Origin: a virus
Strand: one strand, 5' to 3'
Length of the DNA stretch: 64,000 bases
Virus record (IMG/VR): IMGVR_UViG_3300045988_090210
The notes under the pieces are model-generated. The model was not told where the DNA came from and made no database searches. It saw nothing but the letters and a program-made list of their open reading frames with translations. The position numbers were made by a program, and so were the translations under genes. Positions 5,129 through 44,154 of this stretch are shown piece by piece. Numbering within the stretch: the first letter of the stretch is position 1; every line of letters starts with the position of its first letter.

Positions 5129-5379
5129 TGAATGAAAAAAGAAAACATGATCTAACTTATTTATATGCTGCACTTGGGGCAGTTGCCTTTTTTGTAGCTG
5201 GGGTTCCTGCCCTTGACGCTATCGGTGGATGGGTAAGTAACGTGTTTGGTCTGAAGTCGGTTAAATTGAATTACGAAGCATCTAAGTACGCCACTGAAGA
5301 ACCTGAAGAGACGCATACTCAAGTTATTGGATTCCAAACAAACAATGAGTGTGAAGATGGGTGCTGTGAAGATGAGTGA
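5128..5379 (+). CDS. hypothetical membrane protein
   Basis: SD GGAGGA upstream. One hydrophobic helix (LYAALGAVAFFVAGVPALDAIGGWV). Cys/acidic C-terminus. Confidence 0.5.
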   Translation: MNEKRKHDLTYLYAALGAVAFFVAGVPALDAIGGWVSNVFGLKSVKLNYEASKYATEEPEETHTQVIGFQTNNECEDGCCEDE

Positions 5380-5575
5380 AAGAATTAAGTATCTAAAAGA
5401 AAGCCCTTGCTATCAGTGTGGTGTGGCGCAGCAATGTTTAGCTAAGATTACCAGATGTCCAAGGCTGCAAGAAATCAGTGATTATGTAATGCCAAGGGCA
5501 GATTATGATTACCATGATTGTATGCTATACAAGGTGTTGATGATGGAGGCGGAAAATGGGAAGCGGCACAGCTAA
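5372..5575 (+). CDS. hypothetical Cys-rich protein
   Basis: ATG at 5372 overlaps the upstream stop (ATGAGTGA). CYQCG...C...C pattern. Confidence 0.45.
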   Translation: MSERIKYLKESPCYQCGVAQQCLAKITRCPRLQEISDYVMPRADYDYHDCMLYKVLMMEAENGKRHS

Positions 5576-6944
5576 ACCTTATGTTAAGTTCTCATCTAAT
5601 GCCTCTGTTGCGGTAGCTGGGTCATCTCATCTTGTGAGATTTCAGCAGTACGGGATTTTGTTAGATTGTGGGCTTTCTCAAGGCCATGATATAGCCACAG
5701 ACTACCAAAACAATAAAGATTTCCTCAAATCTGTTCGTGTGAAAGAAATCCAGTGGGTTATCCTCTCCCATCCCCATGCCGATCATAGCGCCCTTATTCC
5801 AGCTTTATTCGCTAAAGGTTCCCAAGCCCATGTTTTTGTGCCATTAGGGTCTAAGCCAATTTTGAGACTGCTATGGGAAGATAGCCTAAAAATCCATCAA
5901 TCTGACTGTATCAAGCTAAACAATAAGCATGGTAAAGGGTACAGCCCATTTTATACTGCTGATGATATTGAAACGGCATTGGATAGATGTATTGAGGTTG
6001 ATTATCATCAAAAGACCAACCTAACAAAAAACATTTGGTTTGAATACTATCCTGCTGGCCACATCTTATACTCCGCTCAAGTATATTTGTCTATGACACA
6101 AGGATATAAAGAATATAGAGTAGGGTTTAGTGGCGATGTAGGTGGTCAAATTGAGCGCCCCTATACAATCCCTTATGAGCCATTGCCCTTTGTAGATATG
6201 CTTATCCATGAGTGTACTTATTGTCAACCTACCAGACCAAATAGTGTGAAAGATAGGCCCAAGGACATTGAGAAGATTGAGGCTGTGGTTAGAGATAGCC
6301 ATAGAATCCTGTTCCCTTGTTTTTCTCTACAACGGACTCAAGAGCTGTTGACAGCGTTATATGAAATGTGGGAAGAGGGGTTGTTACCTGATATTCCTGT
6401 TTATCTTGATAGTCCATTGGCCATTAAGATTAGCAATATTTGGCCTGAGACTGAACAATGGCTAAGAGTAATGAAGTGGCCAAGACTCAAATTTATCAGT
6501 GAGACAACGGATAGTAAGGCGTTGCAGATGTCTAATGAGCATTGTATTATCATCGCTGCGTCAGGGTTTTTGTCCGGGGGGAGGATTTTAAGTCACCTAA
6601 CAACGGCTTTACCTAATCCTAATAATACTCTTATGTTCATTGGTTACAGTGGTGAGAACAACCTTGCGTTTAAGATTAAATCTGGTGAGCCATTTGTAGA
6701 GGTTAATGGTGTAGTGCTTGAGAACAAGGCTAAGATTGTTGAGTTAAGATCTTGGTCAAGCCATGCAAGCTATGAAGAACTAATGGATTACTTGACTACT
6801 CTACGGTATAATAAGGTATGTCTCGTGCATGGTGATATGGATGGTAAAGTGTCCTTTGCTAAGACACTTAAAGAAAAGTTGGTAGAGCAAGGCAAATCCA
6901 GCCGTGTTGTAGCTGTAAATCAAGACTCAAAACTATATATTTAA
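5556..6944 (+). CDS. metallo-beta-lactamase fold nuclease, beta-CASP family
   Basis: HxHxDH motif (SHPHADHSALIP). Later His/Asp motifs (AGHILYS, HECTY, SSHASYEEL, LVHGD) fit the beta-CASP layout. Confidence 0.75.
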   Translation: MGSGTAKPYVKFSSNASVAVAGSSHLVRFQQYGILLDCGLSQGHDIATDYQNNKDFLKSVRVKEIQWVILSHPHADHSALIPALFAKGSQAHVFVPLGSKPILRLLWEDSLKIHQSDCIKLNNKHGKGYSPFYTADDIETALDRCIEVDYHQKTNLTKNIWFEYYPAGHILYSAQVYLSMTQGYKEYRVGFSGDVGGQIERPYTIPYEPLPFVDMLIHECTYCQPTRPNSVKDRPKDIEKIEAVVRDSHRILFPCFSLQRTQELLTALYEMWEEGLLPDIPVYLDSPLAIKISNIWPETEQWLRVMKWPRLKFISETTDSKALQMSNEHCIIIAASGFLSGGRILSHLTTALPNPNNTLMFIGYSGENNLAFKIKSGEPFVEVNGVVLENKAKIVELRSWSSHASYEELMDYLTTLRYNKVCLVHGDMDGKVSFAKTLKEKLVEQGKSSRVVAVNQDSKLYI

Positions 6945-6947
6945 TCC

Positions 6948-6976
6948 TTGACAAGCCGCCTCCTTTGTGATATAAT
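6948..6976 (+). promoter_or_regulatory. sigma-A/sigma-70 type promoter
   Basis: TTGACA (6948-6953), 17-nt spacer, extended -10 TGaTATAAT (6968-6976). Confidence 0.65.
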
Positions 6977-7004
6977 TCAAGTATCTTAGAAAAGGAGGCG
7001 GCTT
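6953..7004 (+). promoter_or_regulatory. 14-bp inverted repeat enclosing the -10 box and masking the SD of the next gene
   Basis: AAGCCGCCTCCTTT (6953-6966) is the perfect complement of AAAGGAGGCGGCTT (6991-7004). The right arm contains the SD for the ATG at 7008. Confidence 0.6.
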
Positions 7005-7007
7005 ATT

Positions 7008-7271
7008 ATGGTAAAATTCTATCTTGGTCAAATGGTTAAGTATGTGGGGAGAGAGGGTTTTTGGAGTCCACCTGTGGGCACTGTTGGTACAGTAATTAAA
7101 ATCAACCATTGGGATACTAATTTTCTTGTAGATTTCCCAAAAGAATCTATCGTTTCTATTGATCAGCTTCCTGATAATAGTTATTTCTGGTTTAGTGAAG
7201 ACGAGCTTGAACCGGCCAATAGCCAAGATATGATTAAAAAAGTCAAAGTCCGCTGTATTAAACGGAATTAA
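7008..7271 (+). CDS. hypothetical protein (VGTVGTV domain)
   Basis: Strong SD. Shares the ...P.VGTVG(T/I)V...PK(E/D)... segment with the C-terminus of ORF 11189-11620. Confidence 0.55.
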   Translation: MVKFYLGQMVKYVGREGFWSPPVGTVGTVIKINHWDTNFLVDFPKESIVSIDQLPDNSYFWFSEDELEPANSQDMIKKVKVRCIKRN

Positions 7272-21804: not shown

Positions 21805-22326
21805 TTGGATATTACACTTAAACTAAGTAAAGACTTTGAACGTTGTCTTGAGGATTTAAAGAAAAAGTACGGAGAAGATTTTGAATACATCAACGGCCTA
21901 CACCCAAATCAGCTTGATTTCTCCGAGTTTCTTGATAAGTTCGTTGCCGAAGATACCATGGCTGACGCAACTATTGACCCCAATGCCAACGCTCGCCACA
22001 AGGACATTCGTTCCTTTATGACTGAAAAAGGCAAGTCTGAAGATAAGTTGTTTGGTCTAAATAAAATTTTTACCGAAATCAAAAAACAATGGGGTCTAAG
22101 AACAGCAAAACAATGGCTTGAACAGGAGTTTAGTAAGGGCTTTTATCTAAACGATAGTGCAACAGCCAGTTATTTCCCATATTGTTGGGCAAATGATTTT
22201 ACTCGCCTCGCCACTGAAGGTTTGTTCTTTATCAATGAATACAATAACCAACCCCCTAAGCACCTTACTACTTATCTTGATGATGTTATTGAATTTGTGT
22301 CGTTTCTATCTAATCGGCAGTCGGGT
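21805..22326 (+). CDS. nrdD: anaerobic ribonucleoside-triphosphate reductase NrdD, exon 1
   Basis: TTG start after AGGAGGGG. The reading frame continues into exon 2 when 22326 is joined to 23461 (...SNRQSG|AVGMPN...). Confidence 0.85.
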
Positions 22327-23460
22327 GAACATTACTGCGCCCATTTGCTTCTTTTCTGCTAATCAGCGGGGTTACAATTATGTAGCTAACGGTGAAGGCT
22401 AAGTCTTAATGATATGCTAATACCGTGGGAATGTTTTATAAGGTAGTTTAATGAAAAAAGACATTTATGTAATAAAAAACAGAGTAAATAACATGGTTTA
22501 TGTGGGGCAAGCAATAAATTCTGCCGAAAGATTTATCGCTCATTGTAAGCCAAGTTCTGCAAAACAAGACAAATCCATTATTGATAAAGCCATTCAAAAA
22601 TACGGTGCCAATAATTTTTGGTTTGAAGTAATCGAACATCAGATTGAAGATTATAACGAACGAGAAAAATATTGGATAAAAAAACTGAATTCTTTAACAC
22701 CAAATGGATATAACATACAGGCAGGAGGCGAAAATCCGCCTGTATATCATGGGGTTGACCATTCGCTGTCCACATTTGATAACATAGAGACGGTTAATCT
22801 TATCAAGGACGATTTGAGGAATACTTGTTTGAGTTTGTCTGAAATAGCTAACAAGTATAATTCAAGTAAGAGAACAATAATGAGGATAAATCAAGGGTTA
22901 CATTATGAATCTATTGATGATGTTTACCCTATTAGAAAAGAACCCTTGCAAAATGGCAAGCTATCAAATGGACAAATAGAAGAAATCATAGAGATTCTAA
23001 AATACACATACAGGCAATATAATGATATTGCTCGTCAGTATGAGGTATCTCCGTCAACTATAAAACAGATAAATTCTGGTGTTGTCCATTTTGACTCCAA
23101 AGAATCTTATCCCATTAGAAAATACAAAAATAGTGGCAAACCAAACTGTACTTATGCCCAAGTTACAGAAATTATCGATTTGCTAACTACTACAGATATG
23201 TCTTGCAACCAAATTCATAAATGTTATAATGTCGATTTACAGACCATATATATGATAAAAAATGGTACTGCAAAAAGATATAAACGAGAAGGATATAAAT
23301 ATCCTCTCAGAAAAAACAACCCTATAAAATAAGCCTGTATCGACTATCCCAGTGAATGGGAGTACATTTGCTATTGATACGCAAATGGAAAGAGAAGCAC
23401 TACAAATTTAATTTTGTAGCAAAATATAGTCAGTCCTTATAGAAATATAAGATGTCTACG
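22327..23460 (+). mobile_element. group I intron in nrdD
   Basis: Exon GGGU| pairs with GCCC (22339-22342), giving a U.G wobble. TACTGC (22333-22338) is complementary to exon-2 GCAGTA. Terminal G at 23460. CGACTATC (23341-48) and ATATAGTC (23424-31) are P7-like strands. Confidence 0.8.
22451..23332 (+). CDS. GIY-YIG homing endonuclease (I-TevI-like), intron-encoded
   Basis: DIYVI...VYVGQ...R...EREKYWIKKLN...PNGYN. Three C-terminal HTH-like repeats end in YP(I/L)RK. Confidence 0.85.
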   Translation: MKKDIYVIKNRVNNMVYVGQAINSAERFIAHCKPSSAKQDKSIIDKAIQKYGANNFWFEVIEHQIEDYNEREKYWIKKLNSLTPNGYNIQAGGENPPVYHGVDHSLSTFDNIETVNLIKDDLRNTCLSLSEIANKYNSSKRTIMRINQGLHYESIDDVYPIRKEPLQNGKLSNGQIEEIIEILKYTYRQYNDIARQYEVSPSTIKQINSGVVHFDSKESYPIRKYKNSGKPNCTYAQVTEIIDLLTTTDMSCNQIHKCYNVDLQTIYMIKNGTAKRYKREGYKYPLRKNNPIK

Positions 23461-24861
23461 GCAGTAGGTATGCCCAATGTTCTAATTTGGGCTTATTATT
23501 TCTGGAAGCACGATATTGAGAATGGGTACTATTTGAAAGACCCTGACACTTATCTACGTCAGTGTTTCCAAAAACTAATTTATCGTCTAAACCAGCCCTT
23601 CCTACGCATTGACCAAGCTAGCTTTACAAACGTAAGCATTTTTGACCGGCCTTATCTTGAAAGCCTGTTTGGCGGCATGGAGTTTCCTGATGGCACTTTC
23701 GCCATTGACCAGATTGAGGAAATGCTTGAATGTCAAAAGGTGTTTATGGAGGTTGTGAGTGACATTCGTGAAGAACAGATGTTCACTTATCCTGTGTTAA
23801 CCTATTCTCTACTATATAAAGACGGTAAGTTCGTAGATGAGGACTTTGCTCGGTGGTGTAGCAATCACAATATTAAGTGGTCTGATAGTAATTTCTTCGT
23901 AAGTGACAATGTGGGCGTTTTGTCCAACTGTTGTCGTTTGCTCAGTGATACTAATAAGCTGGATGCTTTTATCAACTCTATTGGTGGCACAGCCCTATCT
24001 GTCGGTTCTTGCCGTGTAAGCACTATCAATCTTGTTCGTATTGCTTATGAGAGCAAGATGAATAAGAAGAAGTATTTAGACATTCTGCGAGACAGGGTGT
24101 TGCTGGACTGCAAGGCACTAACCTCTATGCGTCATATCCTAAAGCGCAACATCGAAAAGGGCCTACTACCCAACTATCAAGATGGTGCTGTTGAGCTTGA
24201 CAAGCAATTCTGTACCATTGGTGGTATTGGTATGTATGAGGTTATGGATTTGTTTAGCCTTATCAATACAGATGAGTTTGGTAACAAGTCTTATAGTGAT
24301 GAAGCTGTTGAGTTCGCCACTCAAATCCTTGACACCATGAACGATGTTAAAGACCATTTTGAGTGCGATTTTACCTTTAACATTGAGATGATTCCCGCTG
24401 AGAATTGTGCTGGTGTTATTTGCACTGCTGACAATCTACTATACGAGCAAAACAAGTATTTCATCTACTCTAACCAGTGGATCCCCCTTATGGAAAAGTG
24501 TACTATTCAAGAAAAGTGCCGTTTAGGTCATCTGTTTGATGCTAAATGTGGCGGTGGTTGTATTGCTCATATTGATATTGAGAACCGGTTCCCCAACGAA
24601 GAAGCCGCTTGGGATATGCTGAATTATGTGGCCAAACAGGGCGTAATTTACTTTGCTTTTACCACTAAGATTAACGTTTGTGAGGATAAACACGCTTTTA
24701 TTGGTACTAAAGAGTGCCCCCAGTGTGGCAAGCCTGTGGCCGACCAATATGCTCGTGTGGTAGGGTTCTATACCCCTGTTTCTGGTTATCAGCGCATCCG
24801 CAAGAGCGAGTTCAACCAGCGCAAATGGTATGATGTTCTAAACAAGGATGGGATTATGTAA
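23461..24861 (+). CDS. nrdD: anaerobic ribonucleoside-triphosphate reductase NrdD, exon 2
   Basis: C-terminal Zn site (CEDKH...CPQCG) and glycyl-radical motif ARVVGFYTPV. Typical class III core. Confidence 0.85.
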   Translation, partial: AVGMPNVLIWAYYFWKHDIENGYYLKDPDTYLRQCFQKLIYRLNQPFLRIDQASFTNVSIFDRPYLESLFGGMEFPDGTFAIDQIEEMLECQKVFMEVVSDIREEQMFTYPVLTYSLLYKDGKFVDEDFARWCSNHNIKWSDSNFFVSDNVGVLSNCCRLLSDTNKLDAFINSIGGTALSVGSCRVSTINLVRIAYESKMNKKKYLDILRDRVLLDCKALTSMRHILKRNIEKGLLPNYQDGAVELDKQFCTIGGIGMYEVMDLFSLINTDEFGNKSYSDEAVEFATQILDTMNDVKDHFECDFTFNIEMIPAENCAGVICTADNLLYEQNKYFIYSNQWIPLMEKCTIQEKCRLGHLFDAKCGGGCIAHIDIENRFPNEEAAWDMLNYVAKQGVIYFAFTTKINVCEDKHAFIGTKECPQCGKPVADQYARVVGFYTPVSGYQRIRKSEFNQRKWYDVLNKDGIM

Positions 24862-26146: not shown

Positions 26147-26851
26147 GTGAAAATTTTGAAAAAAATAGATATTATTGGCAATGTTTACTCTTCCAATCAT
26201 TATGGAGACTTCATTGTAGAAAAAGAATTGTACCCACAAGGAACAAATGTTTATTATCAAATCCGTTTCTTAAGTACAGGAACAACAACTAAAGCTGAAA
26301 AGCATAATATAAAGAAAGGCTCAGTAGCAGATTGTTACGCTAAAACAATTTATGGCGTTGCTTGTCGTGGGCGTGCATCTTCTAAATACCCTGTGTTAAA
26401 CAAAGTGGCTTTCAAACGTTGGTTGGCCATGTTGTCTCGTTGCTATAATAAAAACGATATTGGGTATAAGTCTTATGGTGCCAAGGGGTGTGTTGTTTCT
26501 GAAGATTGGCTTTGCTTTGAAAATTATGTGCGAGACATAATTAACATTAAAGGCTTCAACAAAGAAGAATATCTAAAGGGTATTATCCAGTTGGACAAGG
26601 ATGTTAAGATTCCTGATAACAAAGAATATTCTGTTGACAAATGTATTTTTCTAAATGCTTCAGCCAACAAGAAAAATCAACCTTCAAAGCAAAGATATTT
26701 TTATGCAATTTCGCCACAAGGCCAGCAATTTATATACAACAACGCCAATTTGTGTGCACAAGAACACGACTTAACCGCAAGAACCATCTTAAAATGCTTA
26801 AAAGGTCAATTCAAGCAACACAAAGGCTGGACATTCAAACTTGTAGTCTAA
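26147..26851 (+). CDS. intron-encoded endonuclease-like protein
   Basis: SD AAAGGAGG. YKSYGAKGCVVSEDWLCFENY segment. C-terminal module YFYAISPQGQQFIY...KGWTF resembles homing-endonuclease DNA-binding repeats. No catalytic motif firmly identified. Confidence 0.55.
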   Translation: MKILKKIDIIGNVYSSNHYGDFIVEKELYPQGTNVYYQIRFLSTGTTTKAEKHNIKKGSVADCYAKTIYGVACRGRASSKYPVLNKVAFKRWLAMLSRCYNKNDIGYKSYGAKGCVVSEDWLCFENYVRDIINIKGFNKEEYLKGIIQLDKDVKIPDNKEYSVDKCIFLNASANKKNQPSKQRYFYAISPQGQQFIYNNANLCAQEHDLTARTILKCLKGQFKQHKGWTFKLVV

Positions 26852-29021: not shown

Positions 29022-29390
29022 TTAACCCTCTAAAATATCCTTTAATTTTGTATAAGCGTCTTTAACATATTTAGTAGTCGCCACTACAAACGCCGTAATA
29101 ATTACAATGCTATCCAATACTTGCATAGTTTCTTCTGCAATATCAATTCCTACGTAAACCATGTAAATAGGTAGTGTACTTATAACAATAGAAAGCAAAC
29201 CAATGCCAACGCCAAGGACAATAAATTTAATCAGGCTTTGCCCAACCAACTTCCAATCAAAATCATATCCTTCAATCTTAACACTGCGCCAAGCACCAAG
29301 ACAAATATTAGACAAATATGCGCCTAAAAACAATACAACACCAATACCAACTTTTTCAAGATTATCTATAATAATAGTCATAATATTCAT
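29022..29390 (-). CDS. holin
   Basis: Multiple TM helices and a charged C-terminus, directly downstream of the endolysin. ATG at 29390 follows GAGGTG. Confidence 0.6.
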   Translation of the reverse strand: MNIMTIIIDNLEKVGIGVVLFLGAYLSNICLGAWRSVKIEGYDFDWKLVGQSLIKFIVLGVGIGLLSIVISTLPIYMVYVGIDIAEETMQVLDSIVIITAFVVATTKYVKDAYTKLKDILEG

Positions 29391-29400
29391 TTTATGCACC

Positions 29401-31029
29401 TCATTTTAATAGATTTAATCTATACAATACAACTGCAAGTTGCCTACGAGTAACAGCACCGGTTGGATTAGTACCATCAAAGATACCCATATCACAAGCC
29501 TTATCCCATGCTAGTTCAAGTTCACCTTGAGCATCGGTCTTATCATTAGGCGTTTCAACAATATCATCGCTGGCATTATAAGGTAATATACCCGTGTTCA
29601 CATACTTTATCACGTCTTCTCTAAAATCATCCATTGACTTACCATGTTTAGGCCACCAATGCCCCACATCAGCATGAGCACTAGCAATTCCCTTAATATG
29701 TCCTTCTGCGTGTGAAAGCACAGTATTATTATCTATAGTTTTTTGCCCCAATTTATTTAATATATAAGCGCATGTAAACACTGCCTTACGATAAACATTT
29801 TCAAAATAAGCTTGGTTTTCTTTTACATTATAAAGTAAATAAGACCCTTTACGCTTCTGCAAGGCATGGAGAGTACCAAGACCAACAATACCATCAGCCG
29901 TCAACCCTAGTTTCTTTTGAAATGCTAAAACAGCATTTTTTGTACCAGATCCAAAAATACCATCGATACCATTAGGATTATGCCCCCAAGCTTGTAACTC
30001 CTGTTGAAGCAACTTTACAGCATAAATAGTATTATTAGAACTACCTTGGCTCAAATTCTTCCAGTTTACGTCAAGCAATCGAGTATTTAGAGGTTCACAT
30101 ACTTCACATCCAACATGAGTACTATTTCCCGTACCACCACAATGCCATGTTCGGATACCAATTGGCATCATTTGATAAATACCAGTATCGTCAATAATAA
30201 ATTCTGTTTCAGCCGCTGCACTTGTGCTATTCCAAGTTTTAATAAAAGCAGATGCTTTAGCGCCCGGCGTGCCTGTACTATGTTGCATATATCCAGTCTT
30301 AATCTTTTTCTCTTGTTTTTTATATCTAGGGTTATTTGTTAAAAAGGCTGGTTGAATAGTAAATCCTGTGTCTGTGGTAATAGTAGTCTCCTCCTGTTTT
30401 GGATCGGTCGTAGGCTGAGTAGTGATTTCATTACCTTTTTTTAAATATACTAAAATTAAATTCTGTGACTTGGAAATACCTTGCATCGTAGTCCCATCGC
30501 TATAAAAATTAACCTTACCTCCACCGTCACCCATGATAAATTCCGTCACGCCTTTGGCAAACATATAGTCTCTTAATTTTTCAGGCGTTTTAGCATCGGA
30601 TGTTCCATCTTTACTTGCATACAATACCAAATTCTTACCTTTAATACCAATCCCCGTTCGGCCTCTCACCCCACCAACATCTTTATTATAAATAACAAGA
30701 TTATTAGGATAAGCAGACCCATTCGCAATTAATGTGCAGCAAGTATAATAATTATCATATCCATCAGCTTCAGTGGGAATTCTACATTGACCAAAATCAT
30801 CAGGAGTGTTCCATCTAAAACCTCTACATACATATGGCGCAGACACTAAAACAACACCATCTTTTTTTAATGGACAAGTGGCTTTCCAAGACGTATTATA
30901 AAAATTGCCTGTTACAGCATAATCACAACCAGTTTGCTTTACAATTTGTGATAAAGATAGCTTTTTAGAGTTGATATAAACTTCAATCTTTTTAATTTTA
31001 TTAAAAGGAATATAAGAAATTCTTTCCAT
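29401..31029 (-). CDS. multidomain endolysin (NAGPA-like, Amidase_2, PG_binding_1 and SLH-like domains)
   Basis: Amidase_2 ...TWHCGGTGNSTHVGCEVCEP. PG-binding GIDGIFGSGTKNAVLAFQKKLGLTADGIVG. SLH-like C-terminus GIFDGTNPTGAVTRRQLAVVLYRL. N-terminal ...FIMGDGGGK. Confidence 0.85.
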   Translation of the reverse strand: MERISYIPFNKIKKIEVYINSKKLSLSQIVKQTGCDYAVTGNFYNTSWKATCPLKKDGVVLVSAPYVCRGFRWNTPDDFGQCRIPTEADGYDNYYTCCTLIANGSAYPNNLVIYNKDVGGVRGRTGIGIKGKNLVLYASKDGTSDAKTPEKLRDYMFAKGVTEFIMGDGGGKVNFYSDGTTMQGISKSQNLILVYLKKGNEITTQPTTDPKQEETTITTDTGFTIQPAFLTNNPRYKKQEKKIKTGYMQHSTGTPGAKASAFIKTWNSTSAAAETEFIIDDTGIYQMMPIGIRTWHCGGTGNSTHVGCEVCEPLNTRLLDVNWKNLSQGSSNNTIYAVKLLQQELQAWGHNPNGIDGIFGSGTKNAVLAFQKKLGLTADGIVGLGTLHALQKRKGSYLLYNVKENQAYFENVYRKAVFTCAYILNKLGQKTIDNNTVLSHAEGHIKGIASAHADVGHWWPKHGKSMDDFREDVIKYVNTGILPYNASDDIVETPNDKTDAQGELELAWDKACDMGIFDGTNPTGAVTRRQLAVVLYRLNLLK

Positions 31030-36980: not shown

Positions 36981-39116
36981 CTATATTTCTTGATACCAAA
37001 AGTCGCCCGTATTCATATCAGTAGGTTGACTTGCTGATGTTACTATTTTTATACCAGCACTTATTATTACATCGCCCGTTTGACCGTTTACAGATTTTAC
37101 AGGTGCTTCAGATGCAGTAATATATCCAGATCCATTGATAAGTTGATTATTATTAGTGGGAACCGCAATATTTACTTCTTTGTTGATTATTGGTTGAGCA
37201 GTCCCATTGACTTTAATAGTATCAATTTTACCACCATTAGCTTCAACATAAGCTGGAATACCACCTGCTGTGGCTACATTACCATTAGGGTCATATGTGG
37301 CTTTAAGCATATCACCAGCCCCAGCCGCACTCAACGCATCACTAACAGCTTTCTCACTCGGTACTTTGCTTGTACTTGTTCCAAGAGTTGTAGTAACATC
37401 GGACGTAGATACTGCGCCCACATCAGACGCACCCAACGACACCGCCCCAGTCTGACCATTGACAGAAGTAACAGGATATGGAGGTGGGTTAGATGCTGAA
37501 TATTGCTTAACATTATCAACATTGCTTAGACCAATATCTGATTTAACAAGAGTAACTGCACCTGTTTTTGTGTTTACAGATGTAACAGGTGCTTGAGCAG
37601 ATGTGATAAATCCACTATCATTATCTAACTCACTCGTCTTAGATGGAATAGATGTAGTATCAGGCAACGCTCCTACATCACTGGCTTTAGTAGGTACAGT
37701 AATATTGATTGTTTTATCAGTTGAGGCATTAGCTGTAAAAGTGCCAACAGAAACGCCATTGCGTTGGACATCTAATGTTGCATCATTAACAATAGGAATA
37801 ATTGTAGTATCAGATAGAGCACCAACATCAGCCGCAGTAAGCACCACTACCCCGGTTTTGCCATTCACGCTTGTAACAGGCGCAGATTCTAACTTCTTAT
37901 CAAGTTGTGTTTGTATATTACTTGTTATACCATTAAGATAACTAAGCTCAGTAGAGGTAACTAGACTAACAGCAACTTTACCAGACGCATTAGAAATTAA
38001 TGCTCTATTAGCAGTTAAATTGCTGTCGGTAATGGTACTTGCGCCACCAGCAATAACATCTTGTTTAGAACCAAGCGCTGTGGTTAATGTTGACACATTG
38101 CCTTTTAATGTAGTAATATCAGCCTGAGCCATGCCCATATCAGAATCAAGTATGGCTATATTATCTTCATTGGTATTAATTTGAGTTTTAGCGGCATCAG
38201 TAAAATCATTGTGAGTACGTACATATGTAGACCCATCACCAACATCATCTTGTGTCAACACAACTGCGCCAGTTTTAGTATTAACTGACGTAACTGGTGC
38301 TGACTGCAATGCCGTGTCGGCCTTATCTAAACTCCCCTGTACGTCAGAAGCGAGGTCAGTTTTAGGTATACCGGTAGTAGGTTTAGTATACTTGGCATTA
38401 ACCTGAGATTCAGTAGCATAGTTACTATCATTCTCAAGTTGGCTCACTTTGGTAGGTATAGTAGGTTTATTAGACAAGCTCTCATAGTCTCCGTCAAACG
38501 AACTTGTACCCGCACCAATATTTGTACGAGCTTGAGCTTTTTGCGCATCTGTTAAAGATTGAGAAGTGGTCTTGACTGCGTTTGTTACAACTGTGCCAGT
38601 CGAACCATCCACGCTCTTTACTGGCACGTCATTTGCTGTGATAAAACCACTATTATTGATTAGCTGGCTGGTTTCAGTAGGAATGTCTGTGGTCTTAGCA
38701 TACCCATCCAATACACTGCTATCAATAAAGCCAGAATCGTTGTCAAGCTGGCTGGTTTTTGTAGGAATAGTAGTTGTATTAGGTAATGCCCCAACATCAC
38801 TTGCAGTTAAAACAACAGCGCCAGTCTTGCCGTTGACACTGGATACACCTGTCTCAGGGTCTTGACCACCAGCACCCGGAACGATAATAAAAGCTGCAGA
38901 CATATTACCAAATGGGATGAATACTTGATATACTGTACCCACAGTTGGTGTTCCACCATAATATTTTACTGTATTATCTTTTCCGTTAATAGTAAGTACA
39001 CAAGTTGAGGTGGCAATAGTTTTACAAATACCCGTATATATTTTTGTAGTGTTGTCTTCAACAACTTGTTTTACCATAATTTCAATAGCATCAAGTATCT
39101 CATTAGCAAAACTCAA
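36981..39116 (-). CDS. tail fibre/spike protein with seven V(T/K)SVNGKTGAV...DVGA repeats
   Basis: N-terminal small beta-barrel (gpV-like: TVGTVYQVFIPFGNMSAAFIIVPG). Repeated motif throughout. Ends ...TGDFWYQEI. Confidence 0.65.
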   Translation of the reverse strand: MSFANEILDAIEIMVKQVVEDNTTKIYTGICKTIATSTCVLTINGKDNTVKYYGGTPTVGTVYQVFIPFGNMSAAFIIVPGAGGQDPETGVSSVNGKTGAVVLTASDVGALPNTTTIPTKTSQLDNDSGFIDSSVLDGYAKTTDIPTETSQLINNSGFITANDVPVKSVDGSTGTVVTNAVKTTSQSLTDAQKAQARTNIGAGTSSFDGDYESLSNKPTIPTKVSQLENDSNYATESQVNAKYTKPTTGIPKTDLASDVQGSLDKADTALQSAPVTSVNTKTGAVVLTQDDVGDGSTYVRTHNDFTDAAKTQINTNEDNIAILDSDMGMAQADITTLKGNVSTLTTALGSKQDVIAGGASTITDSNLTANRALISNASGKVAVSLVTSTELSYLNGITSNIQTQLDKKLESAPVTSVNGKTGVVVLTAADVGALSDTTIIPIVNDATLDVQRNGVSVGTFTANASTDKTINITVPTKASDVGALPDTTSIPSKTSELDNDSGFITSAQAPVTSVNTKTGAVTLVKSDIGLSNVDNVKQYSASNPPPYPVTSVNGQTGAVSLGASDVGAVSTSDVTTTLGTSTSKVPSEKAVSDALSAAGAGDMLKATYDPNGNVATAGGIPAYVEANGGKIDTIKVNGTAQPIINKEVNIAVPTNNNQLINGSGYITASEAPVKSVNGQTGDVIISAGIKIVTSASQPTDMNTGDFWYQEI
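37053..38846 (-). repeat. dispersed coding repeats within the fibre gene
   Basis: Seven copies of the V(T/K/S)SVNG(K/Q)TG(A/V)V..(S/A)DVGA peptide, several followed by IP(T/S)KTS(Q/E)LDNDSGFI. Confidence 0.6.
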
Positions 39117-39145: not shown

Positions 39146-39175
39146 AAAAAATAGAGGGCGTAAACTACGCCCTCT
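39146..39175 (-). terminator. rho-independent terminator after the tape-measure gene
   Basis: AGAGGGCG (39153-60) / CGCCCTCT (39168-75). T-run on the minus strand (plus A-run 39146-51). One stem arm overlaps the last codons. Confidence 0.6.
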
Positions 39176-42100
39176 TATAAGCTCGTTGATAGGCCATTTG
39201 TTTAAGACCTGTAATCAACGTTTGTGCATCTCTTGCATTGGGCAGTGTAAGATTATCAATATTAAAAATATTACTCATATTACTTGTTATGGCGTTTGGA
39301 TTAATTTTACCCCAACCCCACAGATTTCTGGTTACATCAGCAGGGATAACACCGTCACCTTGGTCAAGCACCCTTAACTCAGGCCCTTGTTCACCTACTA
39401 AACTTAATCCACCAACAGCGTTTAATGTGCCACCCGCATATTTTTTGCCTTTTAAAGCTTTTATTGCAGTGGTTTTAGCTGTACTAGAACTACTATGGAA
39501 CCCTTCTCTCATTTCCGCTTCTGTCCAACCACTACCACCAGTAGTTTTTGAGAAGTCAAAATAATAACCTTTACCACTTTGGGGTGCTGCAGATGTATCA
39601 GTCTTCTTGGTACTCTTACTACCGTTCAAAGAAGCCATAATACTATTATATTTGTCCGCAAAAGTCTGAGCGTTCATTAATCGCTGTTCCCAATTCTTTT
39701 GCTCCAAATCAATACCCAATACTTGCTCAGCAATTAGCCGGTTTTGTTCTTCCGTATATTGATCTACAACACCAGACCATTCATCTTTATATTGATTCCA
39801 TTGTTCAATTTGCGCATCAATACTGGCTGTAGCTTGGTCTTTGAGTTTATTTAAATTCTCTATCTCTTTACGGAGAGCTTCATCACGCTCATAAGCATCA
39901 AGTTCAGCCTGAGCCGCAGATATGGCCTCAACGTCTTGCATATACTGGAATTGGCCATTAGAGAATACATAAAGCCCCTTGTCCTTGGCTTGAGCCAGAT
40001 TGTTGAGCAATTGTTCATATTGGATCTGCCGTTCAAGTTCGTCATTAGTGTCTTGTAGAGCTTGAATTTGGTCTTCATAGAATTTCTCTATTTCAGATTT
40101 TTGTGTTTCAAGTTCATCTATTTCTTCTCTAATCTTTTGAACAACATAACTTGCCGCTATCTCATAATTGGATTTTTGAGCCTCGGCCGCTTTTTTAGCT
40201 TCTTCTTCTTGTTTAGATGCTAATTCTTCAGCCAACTTAGCACGACCACTGTAAATCTTTTCTTCATAACTATACATGTTCTGATTAATCTGATTTACAT
40301 TAAGGCCATACTCCTTCATATGAGCCGTAGCGTTTGTTTTATATTGCTCCACAAGTTTCTCAAGTTGATTATAATAATCTTCTTGAGTAATTTTGCCCAT
40401 AGCAAGCAAATGGTCTAAATCTTTTTGTAAAGATTGGAAATTTTTAAGAGCTAAATCCGTAACAGACTTACTCCCAGAAGATGAAGATTTAGCTCCACCA
40501 GAACCAGAAGAACCAGATACTATACCAACATCTCGTACATCATAGCCTTCAACAGAAGAAACATTTAATGCACGCCCAAGATCTCGCAACGCAGTTTGCG
40601 CCGCAATGCTAATTGAAGCAGCTTGGTTTAATTTTTCACGATTTGCTTGAGTTGGATTTATTGAATATTCAGTTAAAATTAATCTAGCTGTTGCTTGATA
40701 CCCTTTTGCGACAAGTTGTAATTGTTGTAAAGTTTTTTGTGCTTTGTCTTTAGCATCTAAATAAATCCGACCATTGGCACTTATAAAACCACTTACAGAA
40801 TTAATAGCCTCGTTTTGCGCCAAATAATAACTATCACCAACTTGGGTGATATTGGCTGCCAGTTCTGGATATTTAGATTTAATTGCATCTACTTGCGCCG
40901 CATTAAGTTCAATTGAATTACCAAACTTTTCAGTATGTTGAGCAGCATCTTCATAAGCAGTTGCAAGACTATCAAGAGCATCACGAGCACTTGTAGACTC
41001 ATCACCCACGAGTTGGTGAGCTTGGGCTAATGTACCAAGTTTACTTGTAACTTCATCATATAGTTTTAAATCTTCATCTGTTAAACTATGATTAGTTTTA
41101 AGCTTTTCAGTTAATTCATTAGCCTGCTTAATAAGTTCTTGTTCATAGGCTTCACCAGTTTTATAAACTTCACCTTGAACTGTTTCAAATTGTACACCAA
41201 GAGCTTCTAATTCTTGCCTAGTTTTCTTAGAAGCATTCGGAATATAATTATCAAGATACTTTACAAGCTCTTCATAGGTTTCAAAACTCTGGCCTTGTAA
41301 CCCACTATCAAATCTACCAGCATATTCCCCAGTAATACCAGAAACTTGAATTCTTTCACCAGTGACATATCCGCCTTTTAAGGATTGTTTGGCTTTCTTT
41401 TCAGATAACGTTTCAAGTTTATCTATCTGAGCTTGTAGCTCGTCATTCTCTTTCTCAAGAGCTTCTTTTTCATCTAAAATCTCTTGAGTGCGCTCATTCC
41501 AAGGCAAGTCACTGATTTCTTTAAGCCGCTCTTTATTAGTTTTAAGCTTGCCATTAGTATCGCTAATTTTTGTTTCAAGCTCTTCAAAAGATTTTCTACT
41601 ATCTTCGGTAGCTTTCCATAAAGCGCCACCAACAACTAAAACACTAGCAATGCCAAGAATAATAGGCAAGGTAATACTACCAGCCGCACCAACACCCGTA
41701 ATAACTCCTGCTAGATTTTTAAATTGTTCAATACCAACCTTAAAAATGCCAAGTGCCTTAGTTAAAGATGTTGCGCCCCAGCCCAAACTAGTAAGTAGCA
41801 CAATCTGTGTAACAATCTGACCAAGATCAGTGTTTGCTATCTGCAACAGGCCGTTAGCCAAGTCAAGAACGGCTTTGGCTAAATCGCTGCTGATAACATT
41901 ATTAGCAAAATCTTGAAATGTGGATTGAACTTGAGATAACTTAGCCTGAATAGACTCCATATATGCAGAGTTTTCACGCATCGCAGAGCCTTGAGAATCA
42001 AGGGCTTTGTTGGTTGCGTCAACTGCATGGCCGAAGTTGTTCATTAAGGCCAAGAAATTGTTTAACTGTGTTGTACCCGCTATTGTAGTGGCAATATACT

Positions 42101-42665
42101 TTTGACTGTTATTGTCAAGAGTATCCCACTTTTCAGCCAAACCAGCAAGCAAATCATAGCCACTTTTAAGTTGGCCGTTTTCATACATCTCAACACCAAG
42201 TTGTTCAAAGATTGTTGTTATTTTCTTGCCGTTAGATGAAGCATCATCTAGAACTTGAGCAAGGTTGGCCATAATAGCATTAAGGCCACGAGAAGCCTTG
42301 CTTGCGTTCTTGGTTTGCTCTGTGATTGCGGTCATGAGGCCGATAGTTTGTTCAAAACTGTTGTTCATACCAGCGGATGAAGAAGCAACTACCTTGAGGC
42401 CGGTCGCCAAATCGCCAGTGCCTACGGCAAAGTTGTTTGCTACTTCATTCAACGCATCAGCAATGTGCATAGCATTGCCTTCTACATCGCCAGTTGTTTT
42501 ATTAAACGCTATTAACTGAGAAATTAAAAATTGTGCGGCATCGCCAGTAGAAATAGATTCATCTGCTACGTTTTGGAATATAGAGCTGACCTGTGCCAAT
42601 TGAGCAGCGTCTTTGTCATTAAATCCATTTTTACGGTATTCAGTCGCCGCACTAACCATCTCTGA
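39165..42665 (-). CDS. tail tape-measure protein, exon 2
   Basis: Begins SEMVSAATEYRKNGF... (typical TMP N-region). TM/Gly-rich segment, long coiled coils. No SD before the internal ATG at 42659. Confidence 0.8.
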   Translation of the reverse strand, partial: SEMVSAATEYRKNGFNDKDAAQLAQVSSIFQNVADESISTGDAAQFLISQLIAFNKTTGDVEGNAMHIADALNEVANNFAVGTGDLATGLKVVASSSAGMNNSFEQTIGLMTAITEQTKNASKASRGLNAIMANLAQVLDDASSNGKKITTIFEQLGVEMYENGQLKSGYDLLAGLAEKWDTLDNNSQKYIATTIAGTTQLNNFLALMNNFGHAVDATNKALDSQGSAMRENSAYMESIQAKLSQVQSTFQDFANNVISSDLAKAVLDLANGLLQIANTDLGQIVTQIVLLTSLGWGATSLTKALGIFKVGIEQFKNLAGVITGVGAAGSITLPIILGIASVLVVGGALWKATEDSRKSFEELETKISDTNGKLKTNKERLKEISDLPWNERTQEILDEKEALEKENDELQAQIDKLETLSEKKAKQSLKGGYVTGERIQVSGITGEYAGRFDSGLQGQSFETYEELVKYLDNYIPNASKKTRQELEALGVQFETVQGEVYKTGEAYEQELIKQANELTEKLKTNHSLTDEDLKLYDEVTSKLGTLAQAHQLVGDESTSARDALDSLATAYEDAAQHTEKFGNSIELNAAQVDAIKSKYPELAANITQVGDSYYLAQNEAINSVSGFISANGRIYLDAKDKAQKTLQQLQLVAKGYQATARLILTEYSINPTQANREKLNQAASISIAAQTALRDLGRALNVSSVEGYDVRDVGIVSGSSGSGGAKSSSSGSKSVTDLALKNFQSLQKDLDHLLAMGKITQEDYYNQLEKLVEQYKTNATAHMKEYGLNVNQINQNMYSYEEKIYSGRAKLAEELASKQEEEAKKAAEAQKSNYEIAASYVVQKIREEIDELETQKSEIEKFYEDQIQALQDTNDELERQIQYEQLLNNLAQAKDKGLYVFSNGQFQYMQDVEAISAAQAELDAYERDEALRKEIENLNKLKDQATASIDAQIEQWNQYKDEWSGVVDQYTEEQNRLIAEQVLGIDLEQKNWEQRLMNAQTFADKYNSIMASLNGSKSTKKTDTSAAPQSGKGYYFDFSKTTGGSGWTEAEMREGFHSSSSTAKTTAIKALKGKKYAGGTLNAVGGLSLVGEQGPELRVLDQGDGVIPADVTRNLWGWGKINPNAITSNMSNIFNIDNLTLPNARDAQTLITGLKQMAYQRAYKRA

Positions 42666-42675
42666 CGGTTAATTA

Positions 42676-42924
42676 TTAACGCTTAATCTTTTCTTCAAAT
42701 TCGATTGTGCCATTTTTAGATTCTTTACGTTCTTTAACAAAATTACGATAAGCATTGTCATATTCATCTTGCCGTTTAAATTGATTTCTGGTGCTTTGAC
42801 TACTTCCAGTTGACAGCACAAAAAACACAATTGTAAATAACCAAAACCCTAACGCCAATCCAATATTATTAGCCTGAAACCCCATAATAAAACACAATAC
42901 AAACCAAATAATAGCAACAATCAT
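42676..42924 (-). CDS. intron-borne small membrane protein (82 aa)
   Basis: SD GAAAGGAG. Two hydrophobic helices (IVAIIWFVLCFIMGF, LALGFWLFTIVFFVL) then a charged tail. No endonuclease motif. Confidence 0.6.
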   Translation of the reverse strand: MIVAIIWFVLCFIMGFQANNIGLALGFWLFTIVFFVLSTGSSQSTRNQFKRQDEYDNAYRNFVKERKESKNGTIEFEEKIKR

Positions 42925-42952
42925 ATTATATACTCCTTTCTAATGTGAATAC

Positions 42953-42981
42953 ATAATATCATATAAAAGATTAAATGTCAA
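42953..42981 (-). promoter_or_regulatory. sigma-A type promoter inside the tape-measure intron
   Basis: Minus strand: TTGACA (42981-76), 17-nt spacer, TGaTATTAT (42961-53). Confidence 0.6.
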
Positions 42982-43286
42982 TAATTTTTCCAAAGTTTTT
43001 CAGACTTTGCCTGAGTAATTCTTCACCCTATAATTGGAGGGCCGCTCTGTATACTCGATTGACACACCGCTCATCACGGCTTCGTGCCCAATCTGCCCTT
43101 TTTAACAGTACTTAGGGCTTTCGCCCATATACCATCCTTATCGTTTTAATGATTTCTCACATTCACACTTAGGCTTATCTCATCCTTATGTTGTAGTGAT
43201 AAGGCTCTTGAGGCTTTCAAGGGTTTAGGAGCTATTCTCGGTGCTGGTTTACCATCCCATCACCCCGGCTCAGACCGATTTGGTTT

Positions 43287-43616
43287 ACCGGTTCGCCCTA
43301 CTGCCAGACCCATCTTTGATAACTTAGATACATAATCATCAAGGGAACTGCCAGATAAGTCAGATACTTTCTTAAATTCAGTTATGGAATTATCAAGCTC
43401 TAATACTTGACTTGCAAGCGAACTTATAATATCTATGGTTTTAGAGAATACCTCATTTGCTGAGTTAAAGTTAAGCTCTAAATCCTGAATATCTTTGCTT
43501 GCTTGCTTAACACTACTTGTGTCAAGGTCAATCTTGGCACCTTTTATTTTATTTAGTTGTTCTTGAATTTGTTTTGTTTGTAGATTAACGTCTACAAGTA
43601 TTGAGTAGTTCGCCAT
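43287..43616 (-). CDS. tail tape-measure protein, exon 1
   Basis: SD AAGGAG. 110 codons ending ...LSKMGLAVGRTG. Unspliced read-through adds KPNRSEPG*. Confidence 0.7.
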
Positions 43617-43629
43617 TCACTCACTCCTT

Positions 43630-44154
43630 TTATAGTGAATTTGGCTTGCCAATATGCTTGACTTTGATTTGGCTGTAAGCAATCAATATTGCATCACTTT
43701 GGTCGTCATTATTAAACTTACTACTATCAGACTTCCACACCAAATTAAGCCCAAACAAATCATTGGCTTTTTCTATTGATTTTCTTTTCATTTCGGCTCG
43801 TTTAGTACCATTTCTCGTTCCATCAAACAAGCCCATATGACTGCGCCACTGGCTTGGAATTAAAAACTCAATGGGTATATTAAACGAGGCCGCAACACCA
43901 TAAAAAAATCCTTGCACAGCGCCTAACTGCACAAGGATTTTAGGATTCTGCGCCTTTAAGGGCACATCTTCCATATATATCTTATCAGGATGATATTTGT
44001 TCAATATCTCTATTAGCTTAGGGGCTTGATTAACAGTGCGTTCACGCCAATCTTGTCCTTCAGACTTAATCACACCATAAGCTACTAGTTCTTTTCCATC
44101 AAAGATACTCCAACCCGTGCTCTTAGTGGACGCATCAATTCCGCAAACCACCAT
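43630..44154 (-). CDS. ruvC: RuvC-like Holliday junction resolvase
   Basis: VVCGIDASTKSTGW (Asp), IYMEDVP (Glu), NDDQSDAILIAY (Asp) in RuvC order. Confidence 0.7.
   Translation of the reverse strand: MVVCGIDASTKSTGWSIFDGKELVAYGVIKSEGQDWRERTVNQAPKLIEILNKYHPDKIYMEDVPLKAQNPKILVQLGAVQGFFYGVAASFNIPIEFLIPSQWRSHMGLFDGTRNGTKRAEMKRKSIEKANDLFGLNLVWKSDSSKFNNDDQSDAILIAYSQIKVKHIGKPNSL

Follow-up and report, generated by a model that had tools for sequence, protein, structure and literature searches.

A probable group I intron in a phage tape-measure gene, carrying a predicted promoter and the gene of a small membrane protein

The viral record IMGVR_UViG_3300045988_090210 was analysed here as a stretch of 64,000 nucleotides (nt), hereafter the window. 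On its minus strand, the gene for the tail tape-measure protein is broken into two open reading frames (ORFs) by an insert of 621 nt (42666..43286), and the insert contains a small gene of its own. A first-pass annotation, made by a model from the letters alone, had interpreted the insert as a group I intron with a promoter-driven membrane protein as its cargo. What is this insert, and why would a phage keep a membrane-protein gene inside an essential tail gene? Unless otherwise indicated, the features of this locus given below lie on the minus strand.

The two ORFs were compared with uninterrupted relatives. The ORF at 43616-43260 has the C-terminus ...LSKMGLAVGRTGKPNRSEPG*, and the ORF at 42659-39165 begins with MVSAATEY, upstream of which no Shine-Dalgarno (SD) sequence was found, in agreement with the first-pass annotation. 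When the insert from 43286 to 42666 was excised, a continuous frame was obtained, in which 43287 joined to 42665 reads AVGRTG/SEMVSAATEY. Exon 1 (43287..43616) accordingly has 110 codons and ends ...LAVGRTG in the homolog alignment, and exon 2 (39165..42665) has 1,166 codons and begins SEMVSAATEY...; a terminator-like hairpin is found 3' of exon 2 (39175-39153). The predicted spliced junction is GGCGAACCGGT joined to TCAGAGATGG, and the intron-free target site is ...CGAACCGGT joined to TCAGAGATGG.... A protein search with the joined N-terminus gave 186 relatives. The uninterrupted homologs spanning the junction (G..V.RT.SEMV.AATEFRKNGF) aligned without a single indel or gap, and VGRTGSEM was found exactly at the junction in P0005 and P0028. 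Furthermore, the match to Pfam PhageMin_Tail, which covered profile positions 20-201 with exon 2 alone (expectation value (E) 1.4e-18), was extended to positions 5-201 with the spliced product (E 4.8e-21). The gapless alignment and the longer domain match bear out the proposal that both ORFs are parts of one tape-measure protein, and the intron-less alleles for which a survey had been suggested do occur among the relatives.

A close pair of tape-measure genes with and without the intron was also sought; the best such pair was only 70% identical. Megablast of the region against GenBank phages gave no match. At the protein level, the closest cultured relatives were Enterocloster bolteae phages of ~100 kb, whose tape-measure proteins are ~40% identical and uninterrupted at the codon 110/111 site. 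An intein and read-through were rejected as explanations of the insert, which carries a stop in the exon frame 8 codons in, and so was ribosomal bypass, which could not span an insert as long as 621 nt.

Both of the nearest metagenomic relatives contain this insert together with its ORF. Among 80 viral contigs fetched by tape-measure alignment (designated L below), ~33 carry an insert precisely at the boundary of codons 110 and 111. These inserts measure 568-1,066 nt and share conserved 5' ends (AAACCAAAUCGGUCUGAGCCGG) and 3' ends (...G/UCAGA), and the tape-measure genes carrying them are 37-95% identical to that of the window. An nhmmer profile of the 5' part of the insert detected a single copy per locus, only at the codon 110/111 site, and no second copy in the window. 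When 185,579 species genomes were scanned, the intron core was found in one, on an 81-kb contig of a gut metagenome-assembled genome that looks like a binned phage. Many metagenomic relatives and the closest cultured ones have neither the intron nor the cargo. By this distribution, the intron is a member of a site-specific family in human-gut phages.

Subsequently, the ends of the insert were examined. The last exon 1 bases CCGGU (43291-43287) can pair with an internal guide GCCGG (43269-43265; intron nt 18-22) to form P1 with a U.G pair at the 5' splice site. Directly 5' of this guide, UCUGA (43274-43270) can pair with UCAGA of exon 2 (42665-42661) to form P10; the P1 and P10 guide region as a whole occupies 43265..43291. 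The insert ends with a G at 42666 (omega-G), the predicted 3' splice site, and a G ends every family member. P1, P10 and the terminal G had all been predicted from the window alone, and the family adds covariation to P1 and compensated changes to P10. P1 was paired in 99% of cells across 18 sequences, with two covarying pairs; the second pair of the helix is CG, UA or GC. The pair at the 5' splice site was U.G in 15 of the 18, C.A in one (L026), C-G in one (L038) and G-C in one (L027); C.A is isosteric to U.G. P10 was found as the compensated variants UCAGA/UCUGA (L013), UCAGG/UCUGA (L027) and UUUGA/UCAGA (L022). Two groups of loci depart from the usual form of P1: in L027 and L082, the exon end ...CGGGG faces CCCCG, which places G-C where U.G is near-universal, and in L026, L029, L030 and L066, ...CUGGC faces ACCAG, which gives C.A and is accompanied by no obvious P10.

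The fold of the insert was drawn by hand from the family alignment and comprises 76 pairs in 16 helices. An RNAalifold consensus taken alone lacked P3, P5a and the pseudoknot, paired P5 wrongly, and was set aside for the hand-built fold. This fold was tested on the 18 sequences against controls in which the 3' partners were displaced by 1-3 columns. Standard pairs were formed in 89.3% of cells, against 31-43% in the controls; both sides had changed in 38 of the 76 pairs (controls, 7-15), and the number of double-change cells was 182 (controls, 10-22). The covariation score was 0.387, against 0.04-0.09 in the controls, and none of 500 shuffles attained the observed values. All the helices from P3 to P9 could be placed in the canonical order, with P3 and P7 crossing as a pseudoknot; the manual P3-P9 folding that the first-pass annotation had proposed as a check therefore yields a full core with covariation behind it.

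In the window copy, the core corresponds to intron nt 1-296 and is followed by the promoter and the cargo gene (nt 306-611) and then by the 3' splice site. The P2 hairpin (43240..43264) has a conserved 9-nt loop, GAUGGUAAA. The 5' strands of P3 (43232-43229) and P4 (43223-43221) precede P5 (43214-43211 / 43098-43095), which encloses a P5a-d extension (43204-43107) with two GAAA tetraloops and an 11-nt tetraloop receptor (UAUGG 43129-43125 / CCUAAG 43116-43111). These are followed by the 3' strand of P4 (43089-43087), P6/P6a (43086-43063) and the 5' strand of P7 (43058-43052), in which C43057 is bulged and the pair G43056-C43013 is the candidate guanosine site. The 3' strand of P3 (43047-43044), P8 (43042-43025), J8/7 (GAAGAAU), the 3' strand of P7 (43017-43012) and P9 (43009-42991) complete the core. 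The first ~330 nt of the insert, described at the outset as structured and ORF-free, indeed hold no sense-strand ORF of at least 40 amino acids (aa), and they contain both the tetraloop hairpin GGGCGAAAGCCC and the repeated AUAAGGAUG...CCUAAGU motif.

Individual helices changed in a compensated manner. In P2, both sides had changed in 7 of 7 pairs, and 99% of cells were paired. P7 occurs as GAGUA/UACUC, GACUA/UAGUC and GAAUA/UAUUC, and a closing pair covaries as U-A, C-G or G-C. In L008, the P7 and J8/7 region reads ACAGACUAA...GAAGAAAUAGUCGG, close to the R and S elements of Tetrahymena, and CAGACUA...UAGUCGG in L008 resembles the Tetrahymena P7. When the two bases before the terminal G were compared by eye with J7/9, CC or CU occurred with GG, and UA with UA (L008 and L022), which may be weak evidence for P9.0. 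The P7.1 and P7.2 elements, which define subgroup IA, are absent from the family, and a large P5 extension is present. Taken together, these structural and comparative findings support the assignment of the insert as a group I intron, the splicing of which is predicted.

The cargo gene (42676..42924) encodes 82 aa. Two transmembrane (TM) helices span about residues 1-19 and 20-41 at the N-terminus, and the charged C-terminal tail includes QDEYDN. By the positive-inside rule, this tail is expected to face the cytoplasm. The cargo gene is the sole SD-bearing sense-strand ORF of at least 40 aa lying wholly inside the insert, and 16 nt separate its stop codon from the ATG of exon 2 further downstream. 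The AlphaFold model was all-helical (helix 2-17, a turn and helix 21-81; predicted local distance difference score (pLDDT) 70, predicted template modelling score (pTM) 0.29). For seven 82-aa alleles, the ratio of nonsynonymous to synonymous divergence (dN/dS) was 0.05-0.18, with dS up to 1.0. The ORF is a real protein-coding gene under purifying selection, which confirms the two-helix membrane-protein ORF at 42924-42676 that had been called from the window. The ribozyme, that is, the ~300 non-coding nt, is far more conserved than the synonymous sites of the adjoining cargo ORF.

Cargo ORFs of the family encode 58-116 aa, with one to three hydrophobic or TM helices starting from residue 1 and a strongly charged tail. 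Each intron has one to three of them; two or three stand in tandem in some, such as L009 and L010 (1,058-1,066 nt), and, whatever the lineage, 0-35 nt separate the end of the cargo from the splice site. An acidic-aromatic-Gly motif is shared at the C-terminus (e.g. [DE][EK]YDNxWG), with tails such as QDKYDNEWGYI, INEWGLDDDW, EENFGTIDYW, EQEYGIIDFF and VEEYGLDDQWG; in the window protein, a longer tail continues after QDEYDNAY. Only 6 relatives of the 82-aa protein were found at the 50% cluster level among 1.84 billion representatives. With a profile of all cargo proteins, 123 clusters of 51-85-aa proteins were found, all unnamed or 'hypothetical'. In the contexts examined, which were 75-100-kb contigs from human-gut metagenomes, the cargo always lay between tape-measure exons 1 and 2, in the order tail tube, three small genes, RuvC-like gene, exon 1, a gap of ~360 nt, cargo and exon 2. 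Searches of Pfam, PHROG, PADLOC and NCBIfam gave no family for the cargo beyond sporadic weak hydrophobic matches, and no holin family was matched in the family searches. No endonuclease of the LAGLIDADG, GIY-YIG, HNH, His-Cys box or PD-(D/E)xK type was detected; all 22 of 22 variants were without a nuclease-family match, and the lack of an endonuclease motif first noted in the window copy extends in this way to all family members.

The cargo gene is preceded by a predicted sigma-70-type promoter (42953..42981; TTGACA, 17 nt and TATTAT, with an extended -10 TG) and by the SD GAAAGGAG (42933..42940), both of which had been picked out in the first pass. This promoter agrees with the consensus at 11 of 12 positions, plus the TG, and is the best sigma-70-type match between 38 and 47 kb. 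Downstream of P9, all lineages have TTGACA, a spacer of 17 nt (16 in one of them) and TAnnnT, nearly always with a TG, and then an SD and an ATG. These elements are conserved although the flanking sequence cannot be aligned between lineages. The -35 element of one sub-lineage shares bases with the 3' strand of P9. From P9 to the 3' splice site, the ~325 nt have the layout of a separate transcription unit of promoter, SD and ORF.

In a census of strong promoters in the window, the replication arm (plus strand) gave eight consensus sites with an extended TG, spread from 3.5 to 26 kb (3548, 6948, 8197, 11118, 14093, 18807, 20628 and 26092). Several of them stand just before ORF starts, for example 3548, 14093 and 26092 before 3602, 14112 and 26147, respectively. 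The structural arm has a single sense-strand site with at least 11 of 12 matches and a TG, namely the intron promoter. The eight near-consensus promoters suggest that host RNA polymerase needs no modification to read the early genes. Because the intron promoter is of the class that precedes the replication genes, the cargo would be transcribed early by host RNA polymerase, independently of the late tail operon.

Whether the intron moves between phages was approached with exon 2. In a rough neighbour-joining tree, the intron-bearing genes were spread over two or more clades, and intronless lineages branched among them. Global identity of introns and exons relative to the window left mobility undecided, and pairs of loci of the same subtype were informative. 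The core was 99% identical between L009 and L063 with exons 61-70% identical, 97% between L010 and L062 (exons 61-69%) and 97% between L009 and L055 (exons 61-65%). In 30-nt windows, identity stepped from ~55-65% to ~100% at the intron boundaries, and by these steps the intron, not a block of the gene, is what moved. Furthermore, ORF1 was only 37-60% identical between near-identical cores (L010/L062 and L011/L054), and ORF3 was missing from L063 despite its near-identical core; cargo cassettes are exchanged independently of the core.

As for the route, the candidates are reverse splicing, which would give exact boundaries, and cleavage of the empty site by an endonuclease acting in trans. The candidate enzymes are that of the downstream intron found in L006, L027 and L082 and free-standing ones such as the product of an HNH gene in the window at 26147-26851 (plus strand). 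The latter encodes 234 aa with an I-HmuI-like NUMOD domain and lies directly behind a perfect TTGACA-17-TATAAT with TG (26092). The combination of ORF-less introns and free-standing endonucleases has been described as 'collaborative homing' (PMC3984707).

Taken together, these findings make it probable that the tape-measure gene contains a group I intron carrying an early-type promoter and a membrane-protein gene. Late in infection, the structural operon would be transcribed through the intron and the ribozyme would fold; splicing guided by P1 (CCGGU/GCCGG), P10 (UCUGA/UCAGA) and the terminal G would then join the exons to give one tape-measure protein of 1,276 aa. The place usually held by a homing endonuclease would be taken by the promoter, the SD and the 82-aa TM protein with its predicted cytoplasmic tail, which host RNA polymerase would read early, apart from the late tail operon. 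A cargo acting in competition or exclusion would give the phage a reason to keep the intron. Splicing, use of the promoter and its timing are all read from sequence here.

Several observations weigh against this proposal. The Rfam group I model RF00028 did not match the window copy at the gathering score or at E<=10, whether the whole window, 42400-43500 or the core alone was searched, and the case for group I was therefore built on homologs and covariation. The covariance-model search suggested by the first-pass annotation thus failed for the window copy itself and succeeded in part for its relatives: full-model matches were obtained with the inserts alone of L008 (31.8 bits, E 2.6e-6) and L022 (33.2 bits, E 6.3e-7), both below the gathering score of 50 bits. 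The RF00028 alignment puts P3-P9 at the positions of the hand fold (P3, P4 and P5 in L008), with ~100 nt inserted in the P5 loop, and the window copy aligns end to end with the L008 and L022 inserts (nhmmer, E 1e-95). The miss concerns the threshold of a sequence model and not any structural feature. The weakest helix is P4, with 3 G-C pairs followed by U.U mismatches in the window lineage and 59% of cells paired family-wide. No terminator-like element lies between the cargo ORF and exon 2, which means that transcripts from the intron promoter must enter exon 2, and the cargo stop stands 10 nt from the 3' splice site, where translation on the precursor could compete with splicing. Sequestration of the ribosome-binding site (RBS) in the precursor, in the manner of phage T4, was considered and is not supported, as the predicted accessibility of the SD shifted both ways across 14 lineages. 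The cargo has no match to a known exclusion, defence, holin or other family, and host and lifestyle rest on gene content and the absence of prophages.

The missing Rfam call would also suit a dead, non-splicing remnant, with the tape-measure protein made as two polypeptides (118 aa, and a second from M113) and an ordinary moron between two genes. Split phage genes are known, and here a stop comes 8 codons into the insert and an ATG 3 codons past the junction in exon 2. However, that ATG has no SD, and the break falls inside the PhageMin_Tail domain, where the uninterrupted homologs are all continuous. Moreover, ~300 non-coding nt are more conserved than synonymous sites, and every helix, P1 and P10 included, is compensated; such compensation, which extends to the exon pairings, would not be expected without selection for splicing. 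We consider the remnant very unlikely. Even less credit is given to the idea that the promoter mainly serves an early truncated tape-measure protein, made from M113 of exon 2, with the small ORF as a translationally coupled leader. The lack of a terminator after the cargo, the distance of 16 nt from its stop to the exon 2 ATG and the position of the cargo end 0-35 nt before the splice site in all lineages would agree with a leader. On the other hand, M113 is invariant in intronless homologs as well and is no evidence of a start codon, exon 2 lacks an SD, the cargo is under strong purifying selection as a protein with a shared motif, and three-ORF arrays are hard to explain as leaders.

With the intron and its cargo retained, the role of the protein remains to be weighed. 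Small size, TM helices and a charged C-terminal tail are classical holin hallmarks, and the cargo, with its one to three TM helices and highly charged tail, shows them, as would be expected if the anatomy were the same and the protein acted in lysis control as a holin, antiholin or timing factor. Lysis control is nevertheless unlikely. It is made less likely by a conventional endolysin and holin-like pair elsewhere in the window: the endolysin (29401-31029) lies 12 kb from the intron cargo and is adjoined by a 125-aa ORF with several TM segments (29022-29399) in the usual holin position. The cargo promoter is, besides, of the early replication-arm class and not of the late-gene class, and a copy number of one to three with cassette swaps fits an arms-race gene better than a timing device; the antiholin variant is still compatible with these data. 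Somewhat more plausible, though doubtful, is a protein that aids its own infection or counters host defence, by sequestering a host factor, by anti-defence or as a helper of the tape measure or DNA channel. The early-type promoter agrees with such a role, the conserved acidic-aromatic-Gly motif suggests one conserved binding partner, and the cargo is strictly tied to the tape-measure gene in every context examined. Against it, no similarity to known defence or anti-defence families was found, and the absence of intron and cargo from the closest cultured and many metagenomic relatives makes them non-essential for infection. Our foremost and tentative guess is that the protein, anchored in the membrane, serves competition or exclusion, for instance by blocking the DNA entry of superinfecting phages. 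In the ranking of roles, competition or exclusion comes first, then anti-defence or infection support, and then lysis control. It is also possible, with about as much reserve or slightly more, that these are the first recognised 'moron-carrying' group I introns, endonuclease-less ribozymes that move by reverse splicing or a borrowed endonuclease and are kept for their early competition cassettes. The cargo would then be a modular, fast-evolving cassette of early membrane proteins in phage-phage competition, and the ribozyme a safe-harbour vehicle that lets accessory genes sit inside an essential late gene.

The rest of the window is organised in two arms. The plus-strand arm (0-28 kb) encodes replication functions, namely Sak4-like, DnaB, primase, RecJ, a 1,303-aa polymerase, an ExoV/Dda-like helicase, NrdD and dUTPase, and the minus-strand arm (28-64 kb) holds the structural genes. 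No integrase was found among the large ORFs of the window, and no integrated prophage copy of the intron core in the 185,579 species genomes. A gene for a RuvC-like Holliday-junction resolvase (43630-44154, minus strand) lies directly upstream of the tape-measure gene within the tail module, in a synteny kept in all related contigs examined; this is an odd location for a recombination enzyme, adjoining an intron-rich gene. Downstream of the tape-measure gene, a 711-aa ORF (36981-39116, minus strand) has many ~20-aa repeats (...PVTSVNGKTGAVVLTASDVGAL...) and no Pfam match, and is probably a repetitive tail fibre or distal tail protein. The nrdD gene of the window is also split (21805-24861, plus strand): ORF 21805-22362 covers positions 14-104 of the NRDD profile and ORF 23452-24861 positions 103-562, and the gap of ~1.09 kb holds a 293-aa GIY-YIG endonuclease ORF (22451-23332). 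The arrangement resembles a classical intron with an endonuclease gene, or else a gene split by a free-standing endonuclease; no Rfam group I match was obtained at this insert even at E<=1.

Other inserts were observed in the tape-measure genes of relatives, near residues 78, 138, 185 and 307-316, and were either ORF-less or carried soluble ORFs of 222-388 aa. Twin introns occur in L006 (2274-3976), L027 (694-2390) and L082 (2278-3976), where the membrane-protein intron comes first and a second intron follows a micro-exon of ~25-27 nt (SEMVESAA...). The second intron was a canonical RF00028 group I match (87 bits) in L006 and L027, and the second-intron ORFs encode 265-268 aa with weak DUF2726 similarity; these tape-measure genes do host Rfam-recognised introns. 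In L060 (~5023-7230), an insert of ~2.2 kb at tape-measure residue ~311 has a 377-aa TnpB gene with HTH_OrfB_IS605, OrfB_IS605 and Cas12f1-like TNB domains, and is IStron-like by its cargo. The insert ORF of L059 has a weak I-TevI-like DNA-binding domain, and several other insert ORFs share the motif LPFDF...IEVDG.QH with weak DUF559-like matches. L095 has an ORF-less insert of ~370 nt in exon 1 after ...ELDSALTE (~3700-4076, minus strand) with canonical UUCAACGACUA...AAGAUAUAGUCU elements and a P5b-like segment resembling that of the membrane-protein intron (nhmmer E 9.6e-13); at codon 110, this gene contains the family intron as well, whose 85-aa cargo has the C-terminus MEEYGPIDD. Further interruptions were seen in L001 (3694-4082), in L002 (3749-3972) and near residues 307-316 in L004, L022, L050-L057, L066 and L079, and the tape-measure match of the cultured Enterocloster phage CB457P1 (H6) stops at residue 311. 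Many short 'tape measure' matches arise because gene callers cut these genes into pieces of 220-600 aa. In this phage group the tape-measure genes are broken into at least three ORFs, and their annotation is systematically wrong.

Among known systems, the phage T4 introns in td, nrdB and nrdD (sunY; I-TevII) have an ORF 3' of the core and a promoter of its own within the intron, and their distant 3' splice site is found through P9.0 and P10. The T4 intron ORFs are homing endonucleases expressed from late or middle phage promoters, with the RBS sequestered in the precursor. The ORF of the window likewise lies between P9 and the 3' splice site with its own promoter, whereas it encodes a membrane protein behind a host sigma-70-type promoter, and RBS sequestration is inconsistent. 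The early T4 protein Imm, which has ~83 aa and two TM helices, prevents DNA entry; in size and topology it resembles the 82-aa cargo, but no sequence similarity was detected, and the resemblance is only a lead. Compared with holins, the cargo agrees in size, TM helices and charged tail and differs in lacking an endolysin-adjacent location and a late promoter class. Morons are independent promoter-ORF units added between genes (PMC3594210). Like them, the unit described here has a predicted autonomous promoter and a small accessory ORF inside a late operon and is missing from many relatives; classical morons, in contrast, are intergenic and usually have a terminator, whereas this unit is intragenic, predicted to be neutralised by the ribozyme, and without a terminator.

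Group I introns in tape-measure genes are already established, and the new element is the cargo with its implications. In Bacillus cereus-group prophages, TMP-IVS1, 2 and 3 occupy three sites of the tape-measure gene (Tourasse and Kolsto 2008, PMC2504315), and the tape-measure gene of Lactobacillus phage JCL1032 also bears an intron (PMC2504315). The B. cereus-group introns mostly lack a complete endonuclease and yet are common to different phages, 'a puzzling question' (PMC2504315). The family described here is similar in its tape-measure location at recurrent positions and as an endonuclease-less intron that crosses diverged tape-measure genes. The B. cereus introns, however, are of subgroups IA1 and IA2 and are ORF-less or have endonuclease remnants or GIY-YIG or HNH genes (PMC2504315), whereas the present ones are without P7.1/P7.2 and have a large P5 extension, a promoter and intact, selected membrane-protein genes. 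They offer a concrete case in which to study the long-standing puzzle of the spread of introns without an endonuclease.

IStrons, such as CdISt1 of Clostridioides difficile, combine a group I intron with a cassette at its 3' end that is not a homing endonuclease, and occur in Clostridia (PMC3984707). The likeness is a gene cassette embedded in the 3' end of a group I intron; the difference is that the IStron cargo is an IS605-family transposase/TnpB serving mobility, whereas the cargo here has no nuclease or transposase features. The first-pass annotation had called an intron with a membrane protein unusual, and this judgement stands: no phage or bacterial intron with a membrane-protein or moron-type gene was found in the full-text literature searched, whose coverage leaves out most subscription journals, so that absence is not proof, and the neighbouring introns carry nuclease or TnpB-type ORFs or none. 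The functions associated with bacterial group I introns are endonucleases, IStron transposases and a riboswitch-coupled intron (PMC3984707). The present family suggests that, within essential genes, a ribozyme can offer accessory genes a neutral landing pad, and it brings to light an unannotated family, ~120 clusters of small phage membrane proteins, whose role in phage-phage or phage-host conflict can be tested. Intron proteins of bacteria and phages have been understood as mobility enzymes, namely homing endonucleases, maturases and IStron transposases (PMC3984707); in the introns described here, membrane-protein genes replace them.

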